Program-made: the position numbers and the translations under genes
Source of the DNA: Dehalococcoidia bacterium
GTDB lineage: Bacteria > Chloroflexota > Dehalococcoidia > Lucifugimonadales > JAGWBF01
DNA length: 64,000 nucleotides
NCBI GenBank assembly: GCA_965197405.1
Contig: OZ240206.1
Span: 1,408,179 to 1,472,178 of the forward strand
Direction of reading: 5' to 3'
Notes under the pieces: generated by a model
Database searches by the model: none
The model's input: the letters and a program-made list of their open reading frames with translations, nothing else
Told to the model about the DNA's origin: nothing
Part shown: positions 45,004 to 55,915 of the stretch, one piece after another
How the letters are laid out: each line of letters starts with the position of its first letter
How positions within the stretch are numbered: position 1 is the first letter of the stretch

Positions 45004-45369
45004 GTGGTCAAGAGAGCGAGATTCGATCGCGACGCCTTTTACGCCGCCCTTGACGGGGAGAGGCAAGCACGCCAATGCACCTGGAGGCGAGTAGCTGAAG
45101 AAAGCGGGGTGAGCGCTTCCACACTGACTCGCATCTCTCAAGGCAAGCGGCCTGACGTGGACAGCCTTGCCGCCTTATCAGCCTGGTCAGGACTGGACGT
45201 AGACAGGTTCGTCAAAGGCGGTCCTTCCAGGAAGGAGCCGGAGCCTCTGGCGATGATTTCATCGTGCCTCCGGTCTGATCCTCGGTTGAATGAGAAGGCC
45301 GCCACTGCTCTGGACCAGATGGTGAAGGCAGCGTATAAGAGCATGAGCAGTCCAGAGAGAACTGTATGA
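45004..45369 (+). CDS. XRE-type HTH protein, possible controller of the R-M operon
   Basis: 'WRRVAEESGVSASTLTRISQGKRPDVDSLAALSAWSGLD'. Its stop overlaps the hsdM start (ATGA). Confidence 0.6.
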   Translation: MVKRARFDRDAFYAALDGERQARQCTWRRVAEESGVSASTLTRISQGKRPDVDSLAALSAWSGLDVDRFVKGGPSRKEPEPLAMISSCLRSDPRLNEKAATALDQMVKAAYKSMSSPERTV

Positions 45370-47330
45370 GCGCCCTTAACATCAGCAGCTTCATATGGGG
45401 CATCGCGGACGACGTTCTGCGCGATGTCTATGTCCGGGGCAAGTATCGCGACGTCATCCTGCCCATGACAGTCATCCGCCGCCTTGACGCGGTGCTGGAA
45501 CCGGCAAAGGAAGCGGTGCTCCGCATGAAGCAGCAGATGGACGCCGCCGGTATCACCAACCAGGACCGGGCGCTGCGCCAGGCCTCCGGCGAGGCCTTCT
45601 ACAACACCTCCTCCTTCCGGCTCCGTGACCTGACCTCTATCGGCCAGCAGCAGAGGCTCCGGGCCGACTTCGAGGCGTACCTCGACGGCTTCTCGCCCAA
45701 CATCCAGGAGGTCCTGGAGAAGTTCGAGTTCCGCAACCAGATTCCCAGGCTGGTCGAGACGCATGCGCTGGGGTTCCTGCTGGAGAAGTTCCTCGACAAG
45801 TCGATCAACCTCAGCCCCCGGCCCGTTCTGAACGGAGACGGCTCCGTGCGTCTGGAGGGCCTCGACAACCACGGCATGGGCACCGTCTTCGAAGAGCTCA
45901 TCCGGCGCTTCAACGAGGAGAACAACGAGGAGGCCGGGGAGCACTTCACCCCGCGCGACGTGGTGCAGCTCATGGCCCGCCTCGTCTTCCTGCCGGTTGC
46001 CGATGAGATCAGGCCCGCCACCTACCTGGTCTATGACGGCGCGTGTGGCACCGGCGGGATGCTGACGGTCGCGGAGGAGACGCTGACGCGGCTGGCCGGC
46101 GAGCAGGACAAGGAAGTGTCTGTCCACCTGTACGGCCAGGAGGTGAACCCTGAGACCTACGCCATCAGCAAGGCCGACCTCATCCTGAAGGGAGAAGGCG
46201 TCGAGGCTGACAATATGCAGTTCGGCTCCACCCTCTCCTCCGACGCCTTCCCAGCCCGAGAGTTCGACTTCATGCTCTCCAATCCGCCCTACGGCAAGAG
46301 TTGGAAGAGCGACCTGGAGCGCATGGGCGGCAAGTCCGGCATCACGGACCCGCGCTTCGTCGTGGAGCACGGCGGCAACCCGGAACACTCCCTCATCACT
46401 CGCTCCAGCGACGGCCAGATGATGTTCCTGGCAAACATGCTCAGCAAGATGAAGCACGACAACCAAATGGGCAGCCGCATCGCCGAGGTGCACAACGGCA
46501 GCTCCCTCTTCACCGGCGACGCCGGGCAGGGCGAGAGCAACATCCGCCGCTGGATCATCGAGAACGACTGGCTGGAGGCTATCGTTGCCCTGCCGCTCAA
46601 CATGTTCTACAACACCGGCATCGCCACCTACATCTGGGTGCTCAGCAACCGCAAGCCGGAGCATCGCCGGGGCCAGGTGCAGCTGATAGACGCCACCCAG
46701 TGGTACAGGCCGCTGCGCAAGAACCTGGGCAGCAAGAACTGCGAGTTGTCCGACGAGGACATCCGGCGCATCTGCGACGCTTTCCTCGCCTTCGAGGAGA
46801 CGGAGCAGTCGAAGATATTCCCCAACGAGGCCTTCGGCTACTGGAAGGTTACCGTGGAGCGCCCGTTGCGATTACACGGGATTGACCCTGAACGGGCCTA
46901 CACCGCCAAGGAGATCAAGACCCTCAGGGACGAGGCCGAGCGTTCGGAGACCGCGCCGCCTGTTATCAGGCGAGTCCACAAGACGGGCACACAGCCGGAC
47001 CCGCTTCGCGGCCTGTTCCCGGTTACGCTCGACGGCAGGGAAGCCGTGGTGGAGTATGAGCCGGACACCGACCTGCGTGACACCGAGCAGGTGCCGCTTC
47101 TCCACGAAGGCGGCACCGAAGCCTTCCTCCGCCGGGAGGTGCTTCCCTACGCCCCGGACGCCTGGTACGCCCCGGACAGCGTGAAGGTCGGCTACGAGAT
47201 CAGCTTCACCCGCCACTTCTACAAATCCCAACCGTTGCGACCCCTGGAGGAGATACGGGCCGACATCCTCGCGCTGGAGCGGGAGACGGAGGGGCTGCTG
47301 GCGGAGATTGTTGGAGATGGAAGACTGTGA
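45366..47330 (+). CDS. hsdM: type I restriction-modification methyltransferase subunit
   Basis: 'YDGACGTGGML' (motif I) and 'MLSNPPYGKSW' (motif IV). N-terminal HsdM helical domain. Confidence 0.9.
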   Translation: MSALNISSFIWGIADDVLRDVYVRGKYRDVILPMTVIRRLDAVLEPAKEAVLRMKQQMDAAGITNQDRALRQASGEAFYNTSSFRLRDLTSIGQQQRLRADFEAYLDGFSPNIQEVLEKFEFRNQIPRLVETHALGFLLEKFLDKSINLSPRPVLNGDGSVRLEGLDNHGMGTVFEELIRRFNEENNEEAGEHFTPRDVVQLMARLVFLPVADEIRPATYLVYDGACGTGGMLTVAEETLTRLAGEQDKEVSVHLYGQEVNPETYAISKADLILKGEGVEADNMQFGSTLSSDAFPAREFDFMLSNPPYGKSWKSDLERMGGKSGITDPRFVVEHGGNPEHSLITRSSDGQMMFLANMLSKMKHDNQMGSRIAEVHNGSSLFTGDAGQGESNIRRWIIENDWLEAIVALPLNMFYNTGIATYIWVLSNRKPEHRRGQVQLIDATQWYRPLRKNLGSKNCELSDEDIRRICDAFLAFEETEQSKIFPNEAFGYWKVTVERPLRLHGIDPERAYTAKEIKTLRDEAERSETAPPVIRRVHKTGTQPDPLRGLFPVTLDGREAVVEYEPDTDLRDTEQVPLLHEGGTEAFLRREVLPYAPDAWYAPDSVKVGYEISFTRHFYKSQPLRPLEEIRADILALERETEGLLAEIVGDGRL

Positions 47331-47373
47331 AGCGAGTGTTGCCAAAATGCACACATAGTGCGATAATAGTTAT

Positions 47374-47661
47374 GTGAACATTGCCTTTGACTGGAGCACT
47401 GAGAAGAACCGGCAACTCATTGAGCAGCGGGGAATTTCGTTTGAGGGCATCGTATCCGCCATAGAGCAAGGTGGGCTTCTGGATGTGCTGGAACACCTGA
47501 ACCAGGGCCGCTATCCGGGGCAACAGGTCTACGTTGTCGCAGTGCAGGAATACATTCACCTTGTGCCGTTCGTGATACAGGGAGACGGCGCCCGTTTTCT
47601 CAAGACGATTATCCCCAGCCGGAAGGCAACAAGAGATTATTGGAGGATGCGGCCATCATGA
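47374..47661 (+). CDS. brnT: BrnT-family (DUF497) toxin
   Basis: 'FDWSTEKNRQLIEQRGISFEGIV...IIPSRKATRDY'. GTG start. Confidence 0.65.
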   Translation: MNIAFDWSTEKNRQLIEQRGISFEGIVSAIEQGGLLDVLEHLNQGRYPGQQVYVVAVQEYIHLVPFVIQGDGARFLKTIIPSRKATRDYWRMRPS

Positions 47662-47933
47662 ACGATACAATGGACACGGAGGAGCGGGACATTCTGAGCC
47701 GATTTGAAATGGGCGAGTTGCGCCCGTCTCCCGACGCTACCCGTGAGATCAAGGCGGCGCAAGAAGCGGCGCGTAACACTTTCAACAAGACCCGGCGAGT
47801 AAACCTACGCGTAACCGAGCGCGACTATATGCTGGCGCATACGCGGGCCAGGGAAGAGGGGATACCCTACCAGACACTGCTGTCCAGCGTCATCCACAAG
47901 TACCTGTCGGGCAGATTGGCCGAGAAGGGGTAA
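47658..47933 (+). CDS. brnA: BrnA/CopG-like antitoxin
   Basis: 'VNLRVTERDYMLAHTRAREEGIPYQTLLSSVIHKYLSGRL'. The ATG overlaps the brnT stop (ATGA). Confidence 0.65.
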   Translation: MNDTMDTEERDILSRFEMGELRPSPDATREIKAAQEAARNTFNKTRRVNLRVTERDYMLAHTRAREEGIPYQTLLSSVIHKYLSGRLAEKG

Positions 47934-47935
47934 TG

Positions 47936-48046
47936 GGCATCCTGGCGCTGGAGCGGGAGACGGAGGGGCTGTTGGGGGAGATTGTGGGGGACCTCGACGG
48001 GCCTTCACGCAACAAAGACAAGTTTTACGGTAATGTGGTATGCTAG
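47936..48046 (+). repeat. relic second copy of the hsdM 3' end
   Basis: 47936-47995 aligns with 47261-47320 at roughly 50 of 57 positions by eye ('ILALERETEGLLGEIVGD' versus 'ILALERETEGLLAEIVGD'). It then continues to a TAG at 48044-46. Confidence 0.7.
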
Positions 48047-48066
48047 GCTCCTCAGGAGGGGATGCG

Positions 48067-49197
48067 ATGCCGAGCATAGAACTTTTGCGACCACACCTTC
48101 ACGGGGCGCGTTTCGAAAACGGTGAAATCCCTTTAGAAGTTCTCGGCGATCTGGCGGCTCTGCGAGAAATGGTCTTGGAAGTCGCAAAATGGAGGTTCCT
48201 CCAGGAACACCCCACCCGCCAACGTTCTCCACGTGGTTTCACAGATAATGTTGACTTGAAGCTCACTGGTTTGGAAAGGGGAAGCGCCATTCCGATAATT
48301 GGATTGTCAAGTCGACAACCTGCTTTGCCGGGAGTACAAGAGCCGTACCAAGAATACATTGAGCAAGCGATGAAGTGCATTATCAACGCTGTGGACTCGC
48401 CGGAGTCAGATGCCCTGTCAAGTGCGAACATTCAAATGCCGCGGAAGTACTTCGCTTATTTTGATAGAGTTGGGCGCAGCCTTCGCCAAGGCGAATCCAT
48501 TGAGTTTTGCTTCCCTTCAGGCAAAATATCAGCACAGCTTGACCAGGAAAAGCGGCGCAATTTGCTTGCGATTTCCCACATAAGAGAGCTTACATCAGAA
48601 GTGACTCTCCGCGGCTCCGTTAGCGAGATGGACCAGGACAGAATGACATTCGAGTTGCAACCTATTTATGGGCACAAGATAACCGGCCCTATACCCGAGC
48701 AGCATCGCGATGCCATCATGGAAGCATTGAACGGCTACTGGCATGGGGCACGGGTCATTGTCCAGGGCATCGGCAAGTACGACCGGAGAAACCGCCTGCT
48801 CAGTCTGGAATCCGTTGAGCAGATTGACGAGCTAGACCCGCTGGACGTGCCGGCGCAACTGGATGGCCTACGGGATATGCGAAACGGTTGGTATGAGGGG
48901 GAAGGCCTTGCCCTACCTCATTCGGGGCTCGATTGGCTGACCGGACGCTTTGAACGGTACTATCCCGACGACATGCCGTTGCCCTATGTTTACCCTACCT
49001 ACGAGGGAGGCATACGAATGGAATGGTCCCAGGGAGCTAATGCCATTATCCTTGAAATTGACCTGAATACCCACGTCGGGGAATGGCTCTGGTTCGACCG
49101 GGATTCTGATGCCGAGTACGAGAAGAGTTTAGCCCTAGACGATGCTACCGATTGGGTGTGGCTGGCCTCGGAAATCCGCAGCAAGGCGACGAGTTAA
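48067..49197 (+). CDS. unknown protein (376 aa) embedded in the R-M operon
   Basis: AGGAGG 7 nt upstream of ATG 48067. No motif I recognise. AT-richer than the hsd genes. Confidence 0.6.
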   Translation: MPSIELLRPHLHGARFENGEIPLEVLGDLAALREMVLEVAKWRFLQEHPTRQRSPRGFTDNVDLKLTGLERGSAIPIIGLSSRQPALPGVQEPYQEYIEQAMKCIINAVDSPESDALSSANIQMPRKYFAYFDRVGRSLRQGESIEFCFPSGKISAQLDQEKRRNLLAISHIRELTSEVTLRGSVSEMDQDRMTFELQPIYGHKITGPIPEQHRDAIMEALNGYWHGARVIVQGIGKYDRRNRLLSLESVEQIDELDPLDVPAQLDGLRDMRNGWYEGEGLALPHSGLDWLTGRFERYYPDDMPLPYVYPTYEGGIRMEWSQGANAIILEIDLNTHVGEWLWFDRDSDAEYEKSLALDDATDWVWLASEIRSKATS

Positions 49198-49199
49198 GC

Positions 49200-49574
49200 A
49201 TGAACCCCAGCACATTGCTCTACCGGCAAGTCAATCCCCAATGGATACGTAACGGTAAAGTTAACTCGCAAACATTCTTACCAACAAGAAAAAATGAAGG
49301 TCTCCTGTCGGCCTACGACGGCGATCAAATTACACCGGAGAAGTCTTGGAGGCATTTCACTAATCATCTAGGCTTCCAGTCGGCCGGTGTAGTAGCCGTT
49401 ACTGTAGGAGAATGCCACGATCGGCAACTTCCAGTTAGATCGGACCCCTCACAGTTTCCTGAGCATGTCGTTGTAGATTTTACAGGGCTGAAAAAGAGCG
49501 CGATTGAACGAAGGGCTGATAGCCTCAAAACGTTTGCCAACGCCCGCGGCTGGCTATTTGGCCCGACGAGCTAG
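49200..49574 (+). CDS. unknown small protein (124 aa) embedded in the R-M operon
   Basis: Starts 3 nt after the previous stop and ends 2 nt before hsdS. Begins 'LYRQVNPQW...'. No confident family assignment. Confidence 0.55.
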   Translation: MNPSTLLYRQVNPQWIRNGKVNSQTFLPTRKNEGLLSAYDGDQITPEKSWRHFTNHLGFQSAGVVAVTVGECHDRQLPVRSDPSQFPEHVVVDFTGLKKSAIERRADSLKTFANARGWLFGPTS

Positions 49575-49576
49575 CC

Positions 49577-51068
49577 ATGACAACCACTAGCCAAGAAACC
49601 GGTCCGGGCGTTTGCCCCACCCTCCACCCCCATCCCGTCTACAAGCCCTCCGGCGTCCCCTGGCTCGGCGACGTGCCGGAGCATTGGGACGTGAGGCGGG
49701 GCAAGGCGATGTTGCGGCCCGTTGATGTTCGCTCCGAGACAGGGGATGAGGAGTTGCTGACGGTCTCTGCCCATCGGGGTGTTGTTCCAAGGAAGTCTGC
49801 CAACGTAACTATGTTCAAGGCAGAATCATATGTTGGCTACAAGCTGTGTTGGCCAGGAGACCTGGTTATCAATAGTCTTTAGGGCGTGGGCGCACGGCTT
49901 GGGCGTTTCGCAGCACCACGGCATCGTTAGCTCAGCATATGGTGTCTATCGCCCATTGTCGAAAGCCCACGCTCGGTTCATCCATCTGCTAGTGCGTTCA
50001 GTCCCCTTCCAGTGGGAGTTGCAAGTCCGCTCCAAGGGCATATGGGTGTCGCGTCTTCAGTTGACCGACGAGGCATTTCTTGGAGCGCCGTTCCCCCTCC
50101 CCCCACTCCCCGAGCAGGCGGCCATCGTCCGCTACCTGGACTACGTGGACCGGCGCATCCGGCGGTACGTCGGCGCCAAGCGAAAGCTCATCGCCCTGCT
50201 GGAGGAGGAGAAGCAGGCCATTGTCAACCAGGCCGTCACCCGTGGCTTCGACCCCAACGTCCGCTTCAAGCCCTCCGGCGTCGAGTGGCTCGGAGACGTG
50301 CCGGAGCATTGGGAGGTGCGACGGCTGCGGACCGTTGCCGACATGCGTGTCAGCAACGTGGACAAGCACACTAGAGAAGATGAGGTTCCCGTTCGCCTCT
50401 GCAACTACGTCGATGTCTACAAGAACGACCGTATCACGTTGGCCATGCCTTTTATGGCAGCGACGGCCTCGCGGGACGAGATTGAGCGATTCCGGCTAGA
50501 GTCAGGTGATGTCCTCATCACCAAAGACTCCGAGACCTGGGACGACATTGGAGTCTCGGCCTTGGTAGCGGAGTCGGCCCATGACCTTCTCTCTGGCTAC
50601 CATCTGGCCTTGCTCCGGCCAACGAACGAGATACTGGGGTCATATCTGGCCCGAACCTTGCAGAGCAAGGGGGTGGCCTACCAGTTTCACGTAAGGGCGA
50701 ATGGCGTGACGCGATACGGCCTCACTCACAACGGCATTCAATCGGTTTGCCTACCACTGCCACCCCTCGCCGAACAAACCGTCATTGCCGCGTACCTGGA
50801 CAAGGCCACCGCCACCATAGACGCCGCCATCGCCCGTGCCCGCCGCCAGGTCGAGCTGGTCCAGGAATACCGCACGCGCCTCATCGCCGACGTGGTTACG
50901 GGCAATCTGGACGTGCGCGAGGCGGCGGCCCAGTTGCCCGATGAAGCCGGCGAGGAGCATCCAATCGAAGAAGGCTATATGCTGACAGGTAGCCTGGACA
51001 ATAACTCCTACATCTCCGACGAGTCGTTGGGAGAAGAACTAGCAATGGAAAGCGAGGTGACGGCATGA
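49577..51068 (+). pseudogene. hsdS: type I R-M specificity subunit, interrupted by a frameshift near 49870-49882
   Basis: Two half-TRD repeats, each introduced by 'KPSGV(P/E)WLGDVPEHW(D/E)VRR'. Conserved 'PLPPL(P/A)EQ' spacers. 'GDLVINSL*' in one frame continues as 'RAWAHGLGVSQHHGIVSSAYGVYR' in another. Confidence 0.8.
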
Positions 51069-51304
51069 CGGACTGGAGCAAGTGCCCGGCGGTGGAAAGC
51101 GTGCCCGGCAGGGTGAGCGGCAATTGGGTGTTCAAGGGCACACGTTTGCCGGTCTACGCTCTCTTCGAGAATCTGGCCGGGGGCGCTACCATCTACGACT
51201 TCATCGAATGGTTTGAAGGCGCAGAGGAATCAGACCTGAAGGCAGTGTTGGAGCATGTCGCCCAGGACCTCCGGGCCAAGGTAAGCCATGAGAATCTTGT
51301 TTGA
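51065..51304 (+). CDS. DUF433-family protein (antitoxin-like)
   Basis: 'GNWVFKGTRLPVYALFENLAGGATIYDFIEWF'. The start overlaps the hsdS stop (ATGA). Confidence 0.65.
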   Translation: MTDWSKCPAVESVPGRVSGNWVFKGTRLPVYALFENLAGGATIYDFIEWFEGAEESDLKAVLEHVAQDLRAKVSHENLV

Positions 51305-51623
51305 CAACGGGTCACCCAGGCCGTTGCGCCACCGGCTCTTCGGACACCAGGTCGAGACGGCCAGAGAACGCGGCTGGGGCACCTTAGCCAACGGCGTCCT
51401 GCTGAGCCAGGCCGAGGAAGCCGGTTTTGAAGTTCTGCTCACCACTGACCAAGGCATCCGATACCAACAAAATATGGCCAACCGGCAAATAGCCGTAGTC
51501 GTCCTGATGAACACTGCTTGGCCCCGCATTTCGCGGCGAGCGGAGGCTATCCGCAACGCCATCGAGGGGATGCAGCCCGGTGAAGTGCGGGAAGTCCACA
51601 TCCCGATGAGAGGCGAGGCATAG
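51288..51623 (+). CDS. DUF5615/Mut7-C PIN-like protein (toxin-like)
   Basis: 'MRILFDNGSPRPLRHRL...EVLLTTDQGIRYQQN'. Overlaps the DUF433 gene by 17 nt. Confidence 0.6.
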   Translation: MRILFDNGSPRPLRHRLFGHQVETARERGWGTLANGVLLSQAEEAGFEVLLTTDQGIRYQQNMANRQIAVVVLMNTAWPRISRRAEAIRNAIEGMQPGEVREVHIPMRGEA

Positions 51624-51624
51624 C

Positions 51625-54600
51625 GTGACCACCGACACCAGCGAGAAGGGCCTTGAGCGCCTCATCTGCACCGCGCTCACGGGCGCGCCCTGCGACCCAC
51701 CGCAGGGCGGCATTGTGCGCGAGCGGCCCGCCGGCTACGGCGCCGGCTGGATTTGCGAAGATTCGCAGGACTACGACCGGGAGTACTGCGTAGACCTGGC
51801 CCAGCTCTCCGCCTTCCTCCATGCCACCCAGCCCAACGCCGCCGAATCGCTGGGCCTCGGCCAGGACAGCCCGACGCGGCGCAAGTTCCTGGCCCGGCTG
51901 CAAGGGGAAATCACCCGGCGAGGGACCATTGACGTGCTCCGCAAGGGCGTCAAGCACGGGCCGCACCAGATCGACCTGCTCTACGGGACACCGTCGCCGG
52001 GGAACGAAAAGGCCAGGGTCCAGTACGGGCAGAACCGCTTCAGCGTGACGAGGCAGCTCCACTACAGCCGGGACCAGGCCCAGCTTGCCCTGGACCTGTG
52101 CCTGTTCATCAACGGCCTGCCCGTCGCCACCTTCGAGCTGAAGAACAGCCTGACCAAGCAGACGGTGGACGACGCCGTCGAGCAGTACAAGCGGGACCGA
52201 CACCCCAGTGAGAAGCTCTTCGAGCTTGGCCGCTGCCTTGTCCACTTCGCCGTGGACGACCACGAGGTGAAGTTCTGCACGCACCTAAAAGGCAAGGCGT
52301 CGTGGTTCCTGCCCTTCAACAAGGGGTGGAATGACGGCAAAGGCAACCCGGCGAACCCCAACGGCCTCAAGACCGACTACCTGTGGAAGCAAGTCCTCAC
52401 CCGCGACGGGCTCACCGACATCATCGAGAACTACGCTCAGATCGTGGAGACGAGGGACGACAAGACCGGACGCAAGAGGCGGGAGCAGATATGGCCTCGC
52501 TACCACCAGTTGGACGTGGTGCGCAGGCTGTTGGCCGACGCATCCGGTAGAGGAGTCGGCCCCAGGTATCTGGTCCAGCACTCGGCGGGCAGCGGCAAGT
52601 CCAACTCCATCGCGTGGCTGGCCCACCAGCTAATCGGGTTGGAGCAGGACGGCAAGGCGCTCTTCGATTCGGCCATCGTCGTCACGGACCGCAGGATATT
52701 GGACAAGCAGATACGGGACACCATCAAGCAGTTCGCCCAGGTCGGCTCCGTGGTGGGCCACGCCGAGGACTCCGGCCATCTCCGCACCCTGCTCCAGGAT
52801 GGCAAGCGGATCGTCATCACCACCGTCCAGAAGTTCCCCTTCATCCTGGACGCCATCGGCAACGAGCACCGGGGGCGCAAGTTCGCCATCATCATTGACG
52901 AGGCCCATTCGAGCCAGGGAGGGCGCACGTCGGCATCTGTATCCATGGCGCTGGGAGAGGCCGGTTCAGAGGGTGAAGAAGAGACCACGGAAGACAAGAT
53001 CAACCGGCTGATGGAGAGCAAGAAGCTGCTGCTCAACGCCAGCTACTTCGCCTTCACGGCCACCCCCAAGAACAAGACACTGGAGATCTTCGGCGACCCG
53101 TCGCCGGAGGGCGGGAACACCAGGCATCTCCCATTCCACGTCTACACCATGAAGCAGGCGATTCAGGAGGGGTTCATCATAGACGTGCTTGAGCACTACA
53201 CGCCGGTGGACAGCTACTACCGGCTCGTCAAGACGGTGGAGGGAGACCCGGAGTTCGACACCAAGCGGGCCGGGAAGAAGCTGCGGCGCTACGTGGAGGA
53301 CAACGAGCACGCCATCCGCCTCAAGGCGGAGATCATGGTGGACCACTTCCACGAGCAGGTGGCCGGCTTGCACAAAATTGGCGGGCAGGCGCGGGTCATG
53401 GTGGTCACGAGCAGCATCCAGCGGGCCATCAGCTACTTCTACGCCATCCGGGACTACCTGGCGGAGCGTAAGAGCCCCTACCGGGCCATCGCCGCCTTCT
53501 CCGGAGAGCACGAGTACGGCGGCGCGAAGGTCACGGAGGCATCCCTCAATGGCTTCTCGTCGAACCTGATCGCCGACAGGATTCAGGAAGACCCGTACCG
53601 CTTCCTGGTATGTGCCGACAAGTTCCAGACCGGCTACGACGAGCCTCTGCTGCACACGATGTACGTGGACAAGATCTTGTCTGGCGTCAAGGCTGTGCAA
53701 ACGCTGTCGCGTCTCAACCGAGCGCACCCCAAGAAGCACGACACCTTCGTGCTGGATTTCAACAACGACGCCGACACGATCCAGGACGCCTTCGCCGACT
53801 ACTACCGGACCACGGTCCTGGCGGAAGAGACCGACCCTGACAGGCTGCACGATCTCAAGGCGGCGCTTGATGGCTATCAGGTCTACGCCCCGGCGCAGTT
53901 GGACGAATTGGTGGAGCGGTACCTTTCGGGGGCCGACCGCGACCAACTCGACCCCATCCTGGACACCTGCGTCTCTGCCTATCGAGAGCAGCTGGACGAG
54001 GACGGTCAGGTGGACTTCAAGGGCAAGGCCAAGGCGTTCCTCCGGACTTACGGGTTCCTGGCCGCAATCCTGCCCTACGCCAACGCCGAGTGGGAGAAGC
54101 TCTCCATCTTCCTGACCTTCCTCGTTCCCAAGCTGCCTGCGCCCATCGAGGACGACTTGTCGAAGGGGATTCTGGAAGCCATCGACATGGACAGCTACCG
54201 GGTGGAGAAGCAGGCGGTGCGGGGCGTCCAGCTTCCCGACGAGGACGCCGAGATCGAGCCGGTATCCGCCAGCGGCGGCGGGCAGAAGCCGGAACCGGAG
54301 ATGGAGCGGCTCTCCAACATCATCAGGGAGTTCAACAACCAGTTCGGCAACATCGAGTGGAAGAACCAGGACAAGATCGAGAGGGTGATCACCGAAGAGC
54401 TGCCCGCCAAGGTTGCCGGGGACCGGGCGTACCGGAACGCCATGGCCAACTCCGACCGGCAGAACGCCCGGATTGAGCACGACAAGGCCCTGGAACGCGC
54501 CATGACCGACTATGTGGCAGACCCAATCGAGCTGTTCAAGCAGTTCAGCGACAACGATTTGTTCCGCCGGTGGCTTTCCGAGATAGTCTTCGCCGCTACA

Positions 54601-54651
54601 TACACCGAACCTGCCGCCACGACCAGCGCGTCAAGAAGTCTGGATGTCTGA
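51625..54651 (+). CDS. hsdR: type I restriction endonuclease subunit R
   Basis: 1008 aa. 'HSAGSGKSNSIAW' (motif I), 'IIIDEAHSSQ' (DEAH), 'FTATPK' and 'DKFQTGYDEPLLHTMYVDK'. GTG start 1 nt after the previous stop. Confidence 0.9.
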   Translation: MTTDTSEKGLERLICTALTGAPCDPPQGGIVRERPAGYGAGWICEDSQDYDREYCVDLAQLSAFLHATQPNAAESLGLGQDSPTRRKFLARLQGEITRRGTIDVLRKGVKHGPHQIDLLYGTPSPGNEKARVQYGQNRFSVTRQLHYSRDQAQLALDLCLFINGLPVATFELKNSLTKQTVDDAVEQYKRDRHPSEKLFELGRCLVHFAVDDHEVKFCTHLKGKASWFLPFNKGWNDGKGNPANPNGLKTDYLWKQVLTRDGLTDIIENYAQIVETRDDKTGRKRREQIWPRYHQLDVVRRLLADASGRGVGPRYLVQHSAGSGKSNSIAWLAHQLIGLEQDGKALFDSAIVVTDRRILDKQIRDTIKQFAQVGSVVGHAEDSGHLRTLLQDGKRIVITTVQKFPFILDAIGNEHRGRKFAIIIDEAHSSQGGRTSASVSMALGEAGSEGEEETTEDKINRLMESKKLLLNASYFAFTATPKNKTLEIFGDPSPEGGNTRHLPFHVYTMKQAIQEGFIIDVLEHYTPVDSYYRLVKTVEGDPEFDTKRAGKKLRRYVEDNEHAIRLKAEIMVDHFHEQVAGLHKIGGQARVMVVTSSIQRAISYFYAIRDYLAERKSPYRAIAAFSGEHEYGGAKVTEASLNGFSSNLIADRIQEDPYRFLVCADKFQTGYDEPLLHTMYVDKILSGVKAVQTLSRLNRAHPKKHDTFVLDFNNDADTIQDAFADYYRTTVLAEETDPDRLHDLKAALDGYQVYAPAQLDELVERYLSGADRDQLDPILDTCVSAYREQLDEDGQVDFKGKAKAFLRTYGFLAAILPYANAEWEKLSIFLTFLVPKLPAPIEDDLSKGILEAIDMDSYRVEKQAVRGVQLPDEDAEIEPVSASGGGQKPEPEMERLSNIIREFNNQFGNIEWKNQDKIERVITEELPAKVAGDRAYRNAMANSDRQNARIEHDKALERAMTDYVADPIELFKQFSDNDLFRRWLSEIVFAATYTEPAATTSASRSLDV

Positions 54652-54670: not shown

Positions 54671-55915
54671 GTAGTCAGTCAAATCTGTTTTTGATGGTAG
54701 TTTAAAGAGTCTGAACCAAGGCGCTATACTGAGCAACAGACTGGGTTGAAGTGAGGTGGTGGTATGGTCAGGGAAAAGTACGGAGTCAGGTTGACGCCGG
54801 AGCAGCGGAACCAACTGGAACACTTGGTTCGGGCTGGTAAAAGTACCGCCCGGGTGACTATTCGGGCGCGGATACTGCTCAAGACCGATGCAGGTTGGTC
54901 TGCGCCCCGGGTGGCGCAAGCCTTGGATGTGGTCGAGGGCACGGTGTTCCGCGTCAAGCGCCGCTTTGCCGAAGCTGGGTTGGCTGGGGCGCTGCAAGAC
55001 CGGGTCCAAGCGAACGGGTACCGGAAGCTGGAGGACCTGGGCGAAGCCCACCCCGTATCCAGTACGGGGCAGGCTCTGATTGCCTTGGCCTGTAGCCCAG
55101 CGCCGGAAGGACATGACCATTGGACCCTGCGCTTGCTGGCGGGCAAAGTGGTGGAGTTGGGGTTGGCGTCATCCTTGTCCCACGAGACGGTGCGCCAGCG
55201 GCTCAAAAAAACGTCCTTAAGCCGTGGCAGAAGCAGGAGTGGTGCATCCCCGAGGTAAGCGCCGACTTCGTGGCCCACATGGAGGACGTCCTGGATTTGT
55301 ACGCCGAACCCTATGACCCGCAACGGCCGGTGGTCTGCTTTGATGAGACCTCCACCCAGTTGTTAGCCGAGACGCGGCCCTCTCTCCCTGCCGAGCCGGG
55401 GCGTCCGCTGCGTCGGGACTACGAGTACCGGCGGGAGGGAACCCGCAACCTGTTCGTGGCCTGTGAGCCCCTGGCTGGCTGGCGGCAGGTGGCGGTGACC
55501 GAACGGCGCACCATGCAGGACTTCGCCCACCAGATGCGCTGGCTGGTGGATGAGGCCTACCCGGAGGTCGAGGTGGTGCGGGTGGTGCTGGACAACCTGA
55601 ACACCCATCGCCTCGCTTCGTTGTACGAGACCTTCCCCGCGCCGGAAGCCCGGCGGATAGCTAAACGGCTGGAGTTCCACTATACGCCCAAGCACGGCAG
55701 TTGGCTGAACATGGCGGAGATCGAGTTCAGCGTGCTATCCCGCTCCTGTCTGAAGCAGCGGCTCCCCGACGCAGAATCGCTCCAACGGGAAGTCGGGGCC
55801 TCGGTGCAGGAGCGAAACGAGGCGCGGGTCACCATCAACTGGCGGTTCAAGACTCAGGATGCCCGAACCAAATTACACCGCCTCTATCCCTTCGATCCCA
55901 AACATGACTGACTAC
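54671..55915 (+). mobile_element. IS630-family element (type C), copy 2, flanked by TA, inverted relative to copy 1
   Basis: Same termini as 17912-19156. The translated ORFs differ from copy 1 at only 4 residues. Confidence 0.85.
54764..55911 (+). CDS. IS630-family transposase, orfA (54764-55258) + orfB (55120-55911), A7 slippery run at 55205-55211
   Basis: Same as copy 1. Confidence 0.85.

Follow-up and report, generated by a model that had tools for sequence, protein, structure and literature searches.

We analysed a 64,000-nucleotide stretch of the genome of a Dehalococcoidia bacterium (assembly GCA_965197405.1, contig OZ240206.1, positions 1,408,179 to 1,472,178 of the forward strand; hereafter the window), in which two adjacent genes, termed A and B, lie between hsdM and hsdS of a type I restriction-modification (RM) operon. 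Profile matches place this A-B pair in PDC-M32, an already catalogued family of predicted anti-phage systems. The window pair is, by these matches, a new example of a known candidate and not a new system. The two genes and the upstream signal, in window positions, are as follows.

48067-49197, + strand: gene A, 376 amino acids (aa), ATG start; PDC-M32A; acidic protein (isoelectric point [pI] 4.9) with three domains
49200-49574, + strand: gene B, 124 aa, ATG start; PDC-M32B; compact alpha/beta protein
48053-48058, + strand: AGGAGG, Shine-Dalgarno-like, 8 nt 5' of the gene A ATG, read from the sequence

Protein A matched PADLOC model PDLC04574 (PDC-M32A) with E 1.8e-125, its residues 3-372 aligning with model positions 4-370 of 376. 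Protein B matched PDLC04579 (PDC-M32B) with E 6.1e-49, residues 1-121 aligning with model positions 1-121 of 123. The features that define membership of PDC-M32 (A model, B model, and same-strand adjacency in the order A then B) were all found in the window, and the full-length models, gene order, strand, adjacency and type I RM embedding revealed no difference at family level. Both proteins also matched function-unassigned PHROG families: phrog_30544 for A (E 2e-76) and phrog_31579 for B (E 5e-36). PDC-M32 corresponds to cassette CAS_00128, FAM_01821>>FAM_00608, of PADLOC-DB v2, and the figure 98 stands beside CAS_00128 in the supplementary table; the family belongs to a set of 145 phage defence candidates predicted from embedding in BREX, DISARM or type I RM loci, all of which the authors describe as predictions awaiting tests (Payne, Hughes, Fineran and Jackson, bioRxiv 10.1101/2024.01.29.577857). 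The available text of that paper's supplementary tables contains no domain note for FAM_01821 or FAM_00608. A PDC-M32 pair is also included in the PADLOC annotation of a Sinorhizobium prophage (PMC12429752), and our literature search found no other text mention of the family beyond these two papers.

The original prediction, made from the window sequence, had described the pair as unassignable and as a candidate novel module. The novelty claim does not hold, because PDC-M32 had been predicted by the same embedding argument. The statement that neither protein contains an assignable motif was correct for Pfam and NCBIfam, which gave no match for A or B and, at E<=10, only noise across sets of 47 and 50 family members, but not for PADLOC and PHROG. 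Sequence profiles built from three alignments likewise gave only noise against the PDB. Homology to a known family, which the prediction had named as grounds for refutation, was thus found, and it refutes only weakly, as the family is known as a candidate of predicted function.

Both genes are intact and co-directional between hsdM and hsdS, and their coordinates, the AGGAGG and the ATG starts agreed with those proposed earlier. A longer open reading frame (ORF) for gene A is possible from an ATG at 48040; we placed the start at 48067 because 50 aligned homologues begin at the MPSxE position. The spacer between the genes is 2 nt, the ATG of B beginning at the third base past the TAA of A. The G+C content over A and B is 50-57%, versus 61-69% in hsdM and hsdR, so that the pair lies 5-15 points under its flanks; its higher A+T content had been noted correctly. 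At E<=1e-3, gene A had >466 homologues and gene B had 1353 homologous clusters at 50% identity. The A-B copy of the window is ~55-70% identical to its nearest database relatives, with the exception of one sibling metagenome contig (L081) that is 98.9% identical to the window. A is 99% identical to its sibling counterpart, and B differs from its counterpart at 6 of 124 residues.

Pairing of the two genes was examined in 80 A-seeded loci from one-genome-per-species contigs and in a B-seeded set of 80 metagenome loci and 7 IMG/VR loci. A B homologue stood directly 3' of A in 77 of the 80 A-seeded loci, usually with a 4-nt overlap, and one of the 3 exceptions stops at a contig edge. A stood directly 5' of B in all 87 B-seeded loci, three apparent exceptions being ORF-extension artefacts. 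The A-B architecture persists even in plasmid homologues as distant as 26-29% identity to A, and their small partner matches the B profile with E 1e-21 to 3e-32. These findings demonstrate that A-B pairing is essentially obligate; a lack of conserved pairing in other genomes, the other ground on which the original prediction would have been given up, was not observed. Apart from hsdM, hsdS and hsdR, no conserved third gene accompanies the pair, and no domain fusion was found for A or B. Longer B-containing proteins, considered as fusions of B to other domains, were rejected as read-throughs or mis-called starts. The view of A-B as a discrete two-gene module in a type I RM operon was borne out by this pairing and by recurrence of the hsdM-A-B-hsdS slot.

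Decay of the pair affected mainly B. With A intact, B was absent in one locus (L060), cut down to its last ~45 residues in another (L062), replaced past ~36-50 residues in two (L005 and L010) and interrupted in two more (L011 and L050). At L010:11119-11574, a DUF433 domain substitutes for the body of B after ~50 residues. In L013, B was frameshifted and A was also truncated (335 aa). B without A was not found in either locus set.

The pair is not confined to type I RM operons. Of the 80 A-seeded loci, ~22 had hsd genes nearby, as did 13 of the 50 B-seeded loci that span >=4 kb. Residence in a type I RM operon therefore amounts to ~26% of loci, with the order nearly always hsdM-A-B-hsdS(-hsdR), and in ~74% of loci no hsd gene lies within 6-10 kb. 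The question raised by the original prediction, whether homologues always lie inside hsd loci, was thus answered in the negative. The hsd genes were absent around plasmid and viral copies. Some non-hsd neighbours are defence genes (GmrSD, CBASS cyclase and E2, AriA, MADS, HEC-01, and AbiEii-like AAA_21), and on a Limnohabitans plasmid the pair stands among RelE/ParE and VapBC pairs. A tblastn search revealed no match in GenBank phages and five matches in plasmids, all annotated as hypothetical proteins. Hosts span approximately a dozen phyla, among them Chloroflexota, Planctomycetota, Chlorobiota, Proteobacteria, Acidobacteriota and Gemmatimonadota, and include one archaeal metagenome-assembled genome. 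The mixed neighbours, wide host range and low G+C content indicate that A-B is a mobile, horizontally acquired cassette, independent of the type I RM enzyme, for which the gap between hsdM and hsdS is one preferred insertion site. PDC-M32 is widespread, occurring in many phyla and on some viral contigs, with >1300 clusters of B at 50% identity.

Protein B is enzyme-like, with many invariant polar residues in 124 aa and a confident AlphaFold2 (AF2) model (pLDDT 95.8). The model is a compact alpha/beta fold of order b-(h)-b-a-b-a-b-b-a. Foldseek found no significant match (E<=1e-3) in the PDB, where the best E was 0.25, and none in BFVD, where the best was an unnamed protein with E 0.02. The PDB match of highest TM was 1s21, an ADP-ribosyltransferase-like effector (E 0.39, probability 0.35, TM 0.39, root-mean-square deviation 14 A). 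Its confidently modelled, unassigned fold keeps B of interest now that the family is known, as does the standing of PDC-M32 as a prediction awaiting tests. Conservation among 209 homologues was as follows.

B R9: 98.6% conserved
B F26: 99.5% conserved
B S37: 99.5% conserved
B G63: 98% conserved
B H89: 98% conserved
B E71: 86% E and 9% D (acidic ~94%)
B E88: 67% conserved

The distant plasmid versions of B keep R9, S23, F26, P28, D32, S37, G63, E71, H89 and D93, have a basic residue followed by G at R116-G117, and do not have the YDGD motif, H52 or C72. Because R9, S37, E/D71 and H89 are retained in these versions, they probably form the functional core of B. E88 of 'PEH' was dropped as a catalytic Glu, being only 67% conserved. 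We also considered B as a TIR, deaminase, PIN, Toprim, GIY-YIG or papain-like protein; these readings were rejected on the order and spacing of its motifs, and because Foldseek returned none of these common folds. Residues ~93-118 (49476-49553), comprising the C-terminal strand, a basic helix and 'RGW', gave a recurrent insignificant hidden Markov model (HMM) match (E 0.5-1.9) to the strand and Arg-rich helix of Cas6f/Csy4 (PDB 9irf_B).

The AF2 model of protein A (pLDDT 87.9) has three parts.

48067-48582, + strand: N-terminal alpha/beta region, aa 1-172, with Arg-rich conserved motifs NPxRQRxPRGF and YFDRIGRSL (50-homologue alignment)
48583-48837, + strand: central OB-like five-strand barrel, aa ~173-257, order b-b-b-helix-b-b, with a conserved LRGxVxEADQD hairpin
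48838-49194, + strand: C-terminal domain, aa 258-376, pI 4.2, the most densely conserved part, with motifs LDPLDVPARLDEF, DGWxEGxGxAP and YPTxEGGxxxEWS

Foldseek of A against the PDB gave nothing at E<=1e-3, and its only partial matches were OB-type barrels (LysRS N-domain, eIF5A, SilF, Stn1 and RPA; E 0.03-0.3, low whole-chain TM). Together with the strand order, these matches suggest that the modelled central barrel (pI 5.1) is OB-like. The C-terminal domain is modelled as a helix plus meander sheet and had no family or fold match. A is acidic family-wide (median pI 4.9), and no catalytic motif was found in it. PDC-M63B (E 1.5e-4) and phrog_6603 (E 1.3e-3), proteins of ~310 aa, have weak local similarity to A: its residues 4-88, roughly the first 80, align with their middle part, and the rest differs. 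This resemblance suggests that candidate systems may share an N-terminal module of A.

A and B thus form an obligate pair that is mobile and autonomous; B is enzyme-like, A carries no catalytic motif, and it is B that decays. On these grounds we give an even chance to the reading that A-B is a mobile toxin-antitoxin-like abortive-infection (defence) module in which B is the effector and A its neutraliser or a sensor. The toxic component would be B, a small enzyme-like protein whose polar core (R9, S37, E/D71 and H89) suggests a reaction that needs no metal, with a nucleotide or nucleic acid as substrate. A, made from the same message just 5' of B, would keep B inactive and would free it on a phage cue, infection being sensed through the OB-like or acidic domains. 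The cassette would work without the type I RM enzyme. If PDC-M32 does defend against phages, it would bring to prokaryotic immunity an effector whose mechanism is unexplored, and residues R9, S37, E71 and H89, the domain map of A and the autonomy of the module from the RM enzyme supply handles on it.

Several observations weigh against this reading. The searchable literature contains no experiment on the PDC-M32 family; a cold-seep study tested several PDC systems, and M32 was not among them. Profile and structure searches gave no fold or family link that would provide B with a chemistry. Housekeeping genes adjoin many of the non-hsd copies, so that enrichment in defence islands was not demonstrated, and ORF calling in the non-hsd loci was crude. 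The pI of B is 9.6 in the window, but the family median is 6.4 and variable, so charge complementarity with A is not general. Errors in long-read assembly may account for some of the frameshifts in B. The window locus itself may be decaying, given its frameshifted hsdS, and codon 32 of B (49293-49295) encodes Asn in the window, versus Asp in 88% of the 209 homologues and in sibling contigs.

The chemistry of B was weighed between two candidates. The residues would suit either an RNase acting by acid-base catalysis (Glu, His, Arg) or a transferase that uses NAD+ (Arg, Ser, Glu), and fold searches supported neither. Glu/His/Arg acid-base cleavage of RNA is used by microbial RNases and by some toxin or Cas6-type enzymes, and R9, E71, H89 and S37 would suit it. 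B could then be a metal-independent endoribonuclease, blocked by acidic A as a substrate mimic in the manner of barstar and barnase. The strongly acidic A and basic B of the window agree with this, as does the recurrent local match of the C-terminal strand and basic helix of B to Cas6f, and RNase effectors occur frequently in candidates embedded in RM and Hma loci (bioRxiv 10.1101/2024.01.29.577857, section 9). However, the Cas6f match covers ~34 residues and is insignificant, Foldseek revealed no RNase fold, and the pI of B-family proteins is often near neutral; we consider an RNase unlikely. The transferase was anticipated by the original prediction, which had tentatively seen an R-S-E triad in B. 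R9, S37 and E71 are indeed among the well-conserved positions, in that order, and are kept in the distant plasmid homologues. The succession of a strand-borne aromatic-R, a strand-borne S followed by a helix, and then an acidic residue suits the class, and 1s21 is the PDB match of highest TM. On this basis B would be a minimal R-S-E ADP-ribosyltransferase or NAD+-consuming toxin, with A as its antitoxin. We regard this as quite improbable: the 1s21 match is insignificant, neither HMM nor Foldseek searches gave an ADP-ribosyltransferase fold (none of 47 members matched a Pfam ADP-ribosyltransferase, RES or DarT family at E<=10), and there was no PDB sequence match. B has no STS or ExE motif, S37 being followed by V/A-Y and not by x-S/T, and E71 lying outside a Q/E-x-E. 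E71 comes after strand 3 and opens a short helix, instead of opening a strand after an ARTT-like loop; E88 of 'PEH' is poorly conserved; and H89, more conserved than E71, has no role in the class.

The other two alternatives concern what the pair is for. A purely selfish addiction (toxin-antitoxin) cassette, which stabilises plasmids, prophages and genomic islands and has no anti-phage role, would explain why one plasmid copy has several type II toxin-antitoxin pairs as neighbours, why the hsd operon of the window also holds two other toxin-antitoxin-like pairs, and why B decays with A retained. However, A would be an unusually large antitoxin, with three domains and no DNA-binding domain, and recurrent RM embedding is the very basis on which the family was chosen as a defence candidate. 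Addiction and defence are moreover not mutually exclusive, and we hold the purely selfish form to be decidedly unlikely. The idea that A-B is a PrrC-like guard, latent under HsdMSR until inhibition of the enzyme by a phage anti-restriction protein sets it off, draws on the fixed hsdM-hsdS slot in the window and in about a quarter of loci, and on the co-directional, likely co-transcribed arrangement with no promoter-like site directly 5' of A. Such dependence on HsdMSR is very improbable in view of the majority of loci, and the plasmid and viral copies, that are without hsd genes; the window has a frameshifted hsdS alongside intact A and B, and neither an ABC ATPase domain nor a match to the PADLOC PrrC models was found.

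Comparison with known systems led to similar distinctions. The anticodon nucleases PrrC and RloC, linked to type I RM loci, resemble the pair as accessory genes inside an hsd operon that are thought to be a second line of defence. The earlier comparison of the slot with that of PrrC/RloC-type effectors holds as an analogy of position and no further: PrrC and RloC are single proteins in which an N-terminal ABC-type ATPase (Walker A/B) is fused to a C-terminal nuclease domain, whereas A and B are two proteins with no AAA, ABC or PrrC match in Pfam, NCBIfam or PADLOC and no P-loop among their conserved columns. Near-exclusive residence in type I RM loci, as expected of a PrrC/RloC-type nuclease, was not observed for A-B. 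The prrC gene sits between hsdS and hsdR. Toxin-antitoxin pairs (RES-Xre, DarTG and barnase-barstar logic) are like A-B in having two overlapping genes for a small enzyme-like protein and its partner, in decay of the small gene with the partner kept, and in their presence in toxin-antitoxin islands. They differ in that A is three times larger than B, has an OB-like barrel, and contains no HTH, RHH or macro domain. The features of a type II toxin-antitoxin system were not found, as neither protein has an HTH, RHH or AbrB domain and A has 376 aa, and no homology of A or B to toxin-antitoxin families was detected in Pfam, NCBIfam or PADLOC.

A bolder form of the abortive-infection reading is that PDC-M32B founds an unseen enzyme fold with an R-S-E/D-H catalytic centre, an effector held in check by an acidic, infection-sensing OB-fold partner. 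It would amount to a mechanistically new defence, and such cassettes may be stacked into type I RM operons via recombination that duplicates the hsdM 3' end. We put this forward tentatively, as a possibility open to considerable doubt. Its last element concerns the hsd operon, the other features of which are as follows.

45366-47330, + strand: hsdM (Pfam N6_Mtase 2e-55, HsdM_N 1e-20)
47374-47933, + strand: overlapping genes for a BrnT-like toxin and a CopG-like antitoxin, between hsdM and the relic (Pfam BrnT_toxin 4e-5 and CopG_antitoxin 0.025, both under curated cut-offs)
47938-47991, + strand: relic of the 3' end of hsdM (54 nt, 91% identical to 47264-47317, the last hsdM codons)
49577-51068, + strand: hsdS, split (Pfam Methylase_S), with one extra T (CTTTAGG) near 49877-49880
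51625-54651, + strand: hsdR (Pfam HSDR_N, ResIII, SWI2_SNF2 and T1R_D3-like)

The relic of the hsdM 3' end just 5' of A shows that the pair originally lay immediately 3' of hsdM, as previously proposed. The relic is real; its extent (47936-48046) had been overstated, the similarity stopping near 47991. Direct repeats of the hsdM end (47264-47317 and 47938-47991) flank the BrnT-like pair of the window. An hsdM fragment (aa 566-650) stands after the A-B pair at L033:11526-11843, and another (aa 605-651) stands directly 5' of A at L020:9772-10023, with no hsdS or hsdR nearby. The occurrence of hsdM tails beside cassettes in the window, L033 and L020 suggests that recombination at the 3' end of hsdM is how cassettes become stacked or relocated. 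A DUF433 and DUF5615/PIN-like pair at 51065-51623, between hsdS and hsdR, is the third two-gene cassette in the operon. The window itself is a modest result, a natural example of three two-gene cassettes stacked in one hsd operon with a visible recombination scar.

When two intact HsdS homologues were used in tblastn, the frame changed at 49877-49880. The hsdS break may reflect a true frameshift, which would make hsdS a pseudogene, or an error in assembling a homopolymer. A small HTH_3 (Xre-type) gene at 45004-45369 overlaps the hsdM start codon and may be a controller of the RM operon. A strong promoter-like site (10/12 matches, TG-extended) was found at 47339-47367. Directly after hsdR, an IS630-type transposase at 54764-55911 has two overlapping frames (HTH_32/HTH_23, then DDE_3). 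Sibling contig L081 has a different hsdS target-recognition region relative to window positions 49677-50829, and its hsdR carries a 3.7-kb insertion (~52312-52325) with an IS1595 transposase, a Bro-N protein and an N6_N4 methyltransferase-HNH protein.

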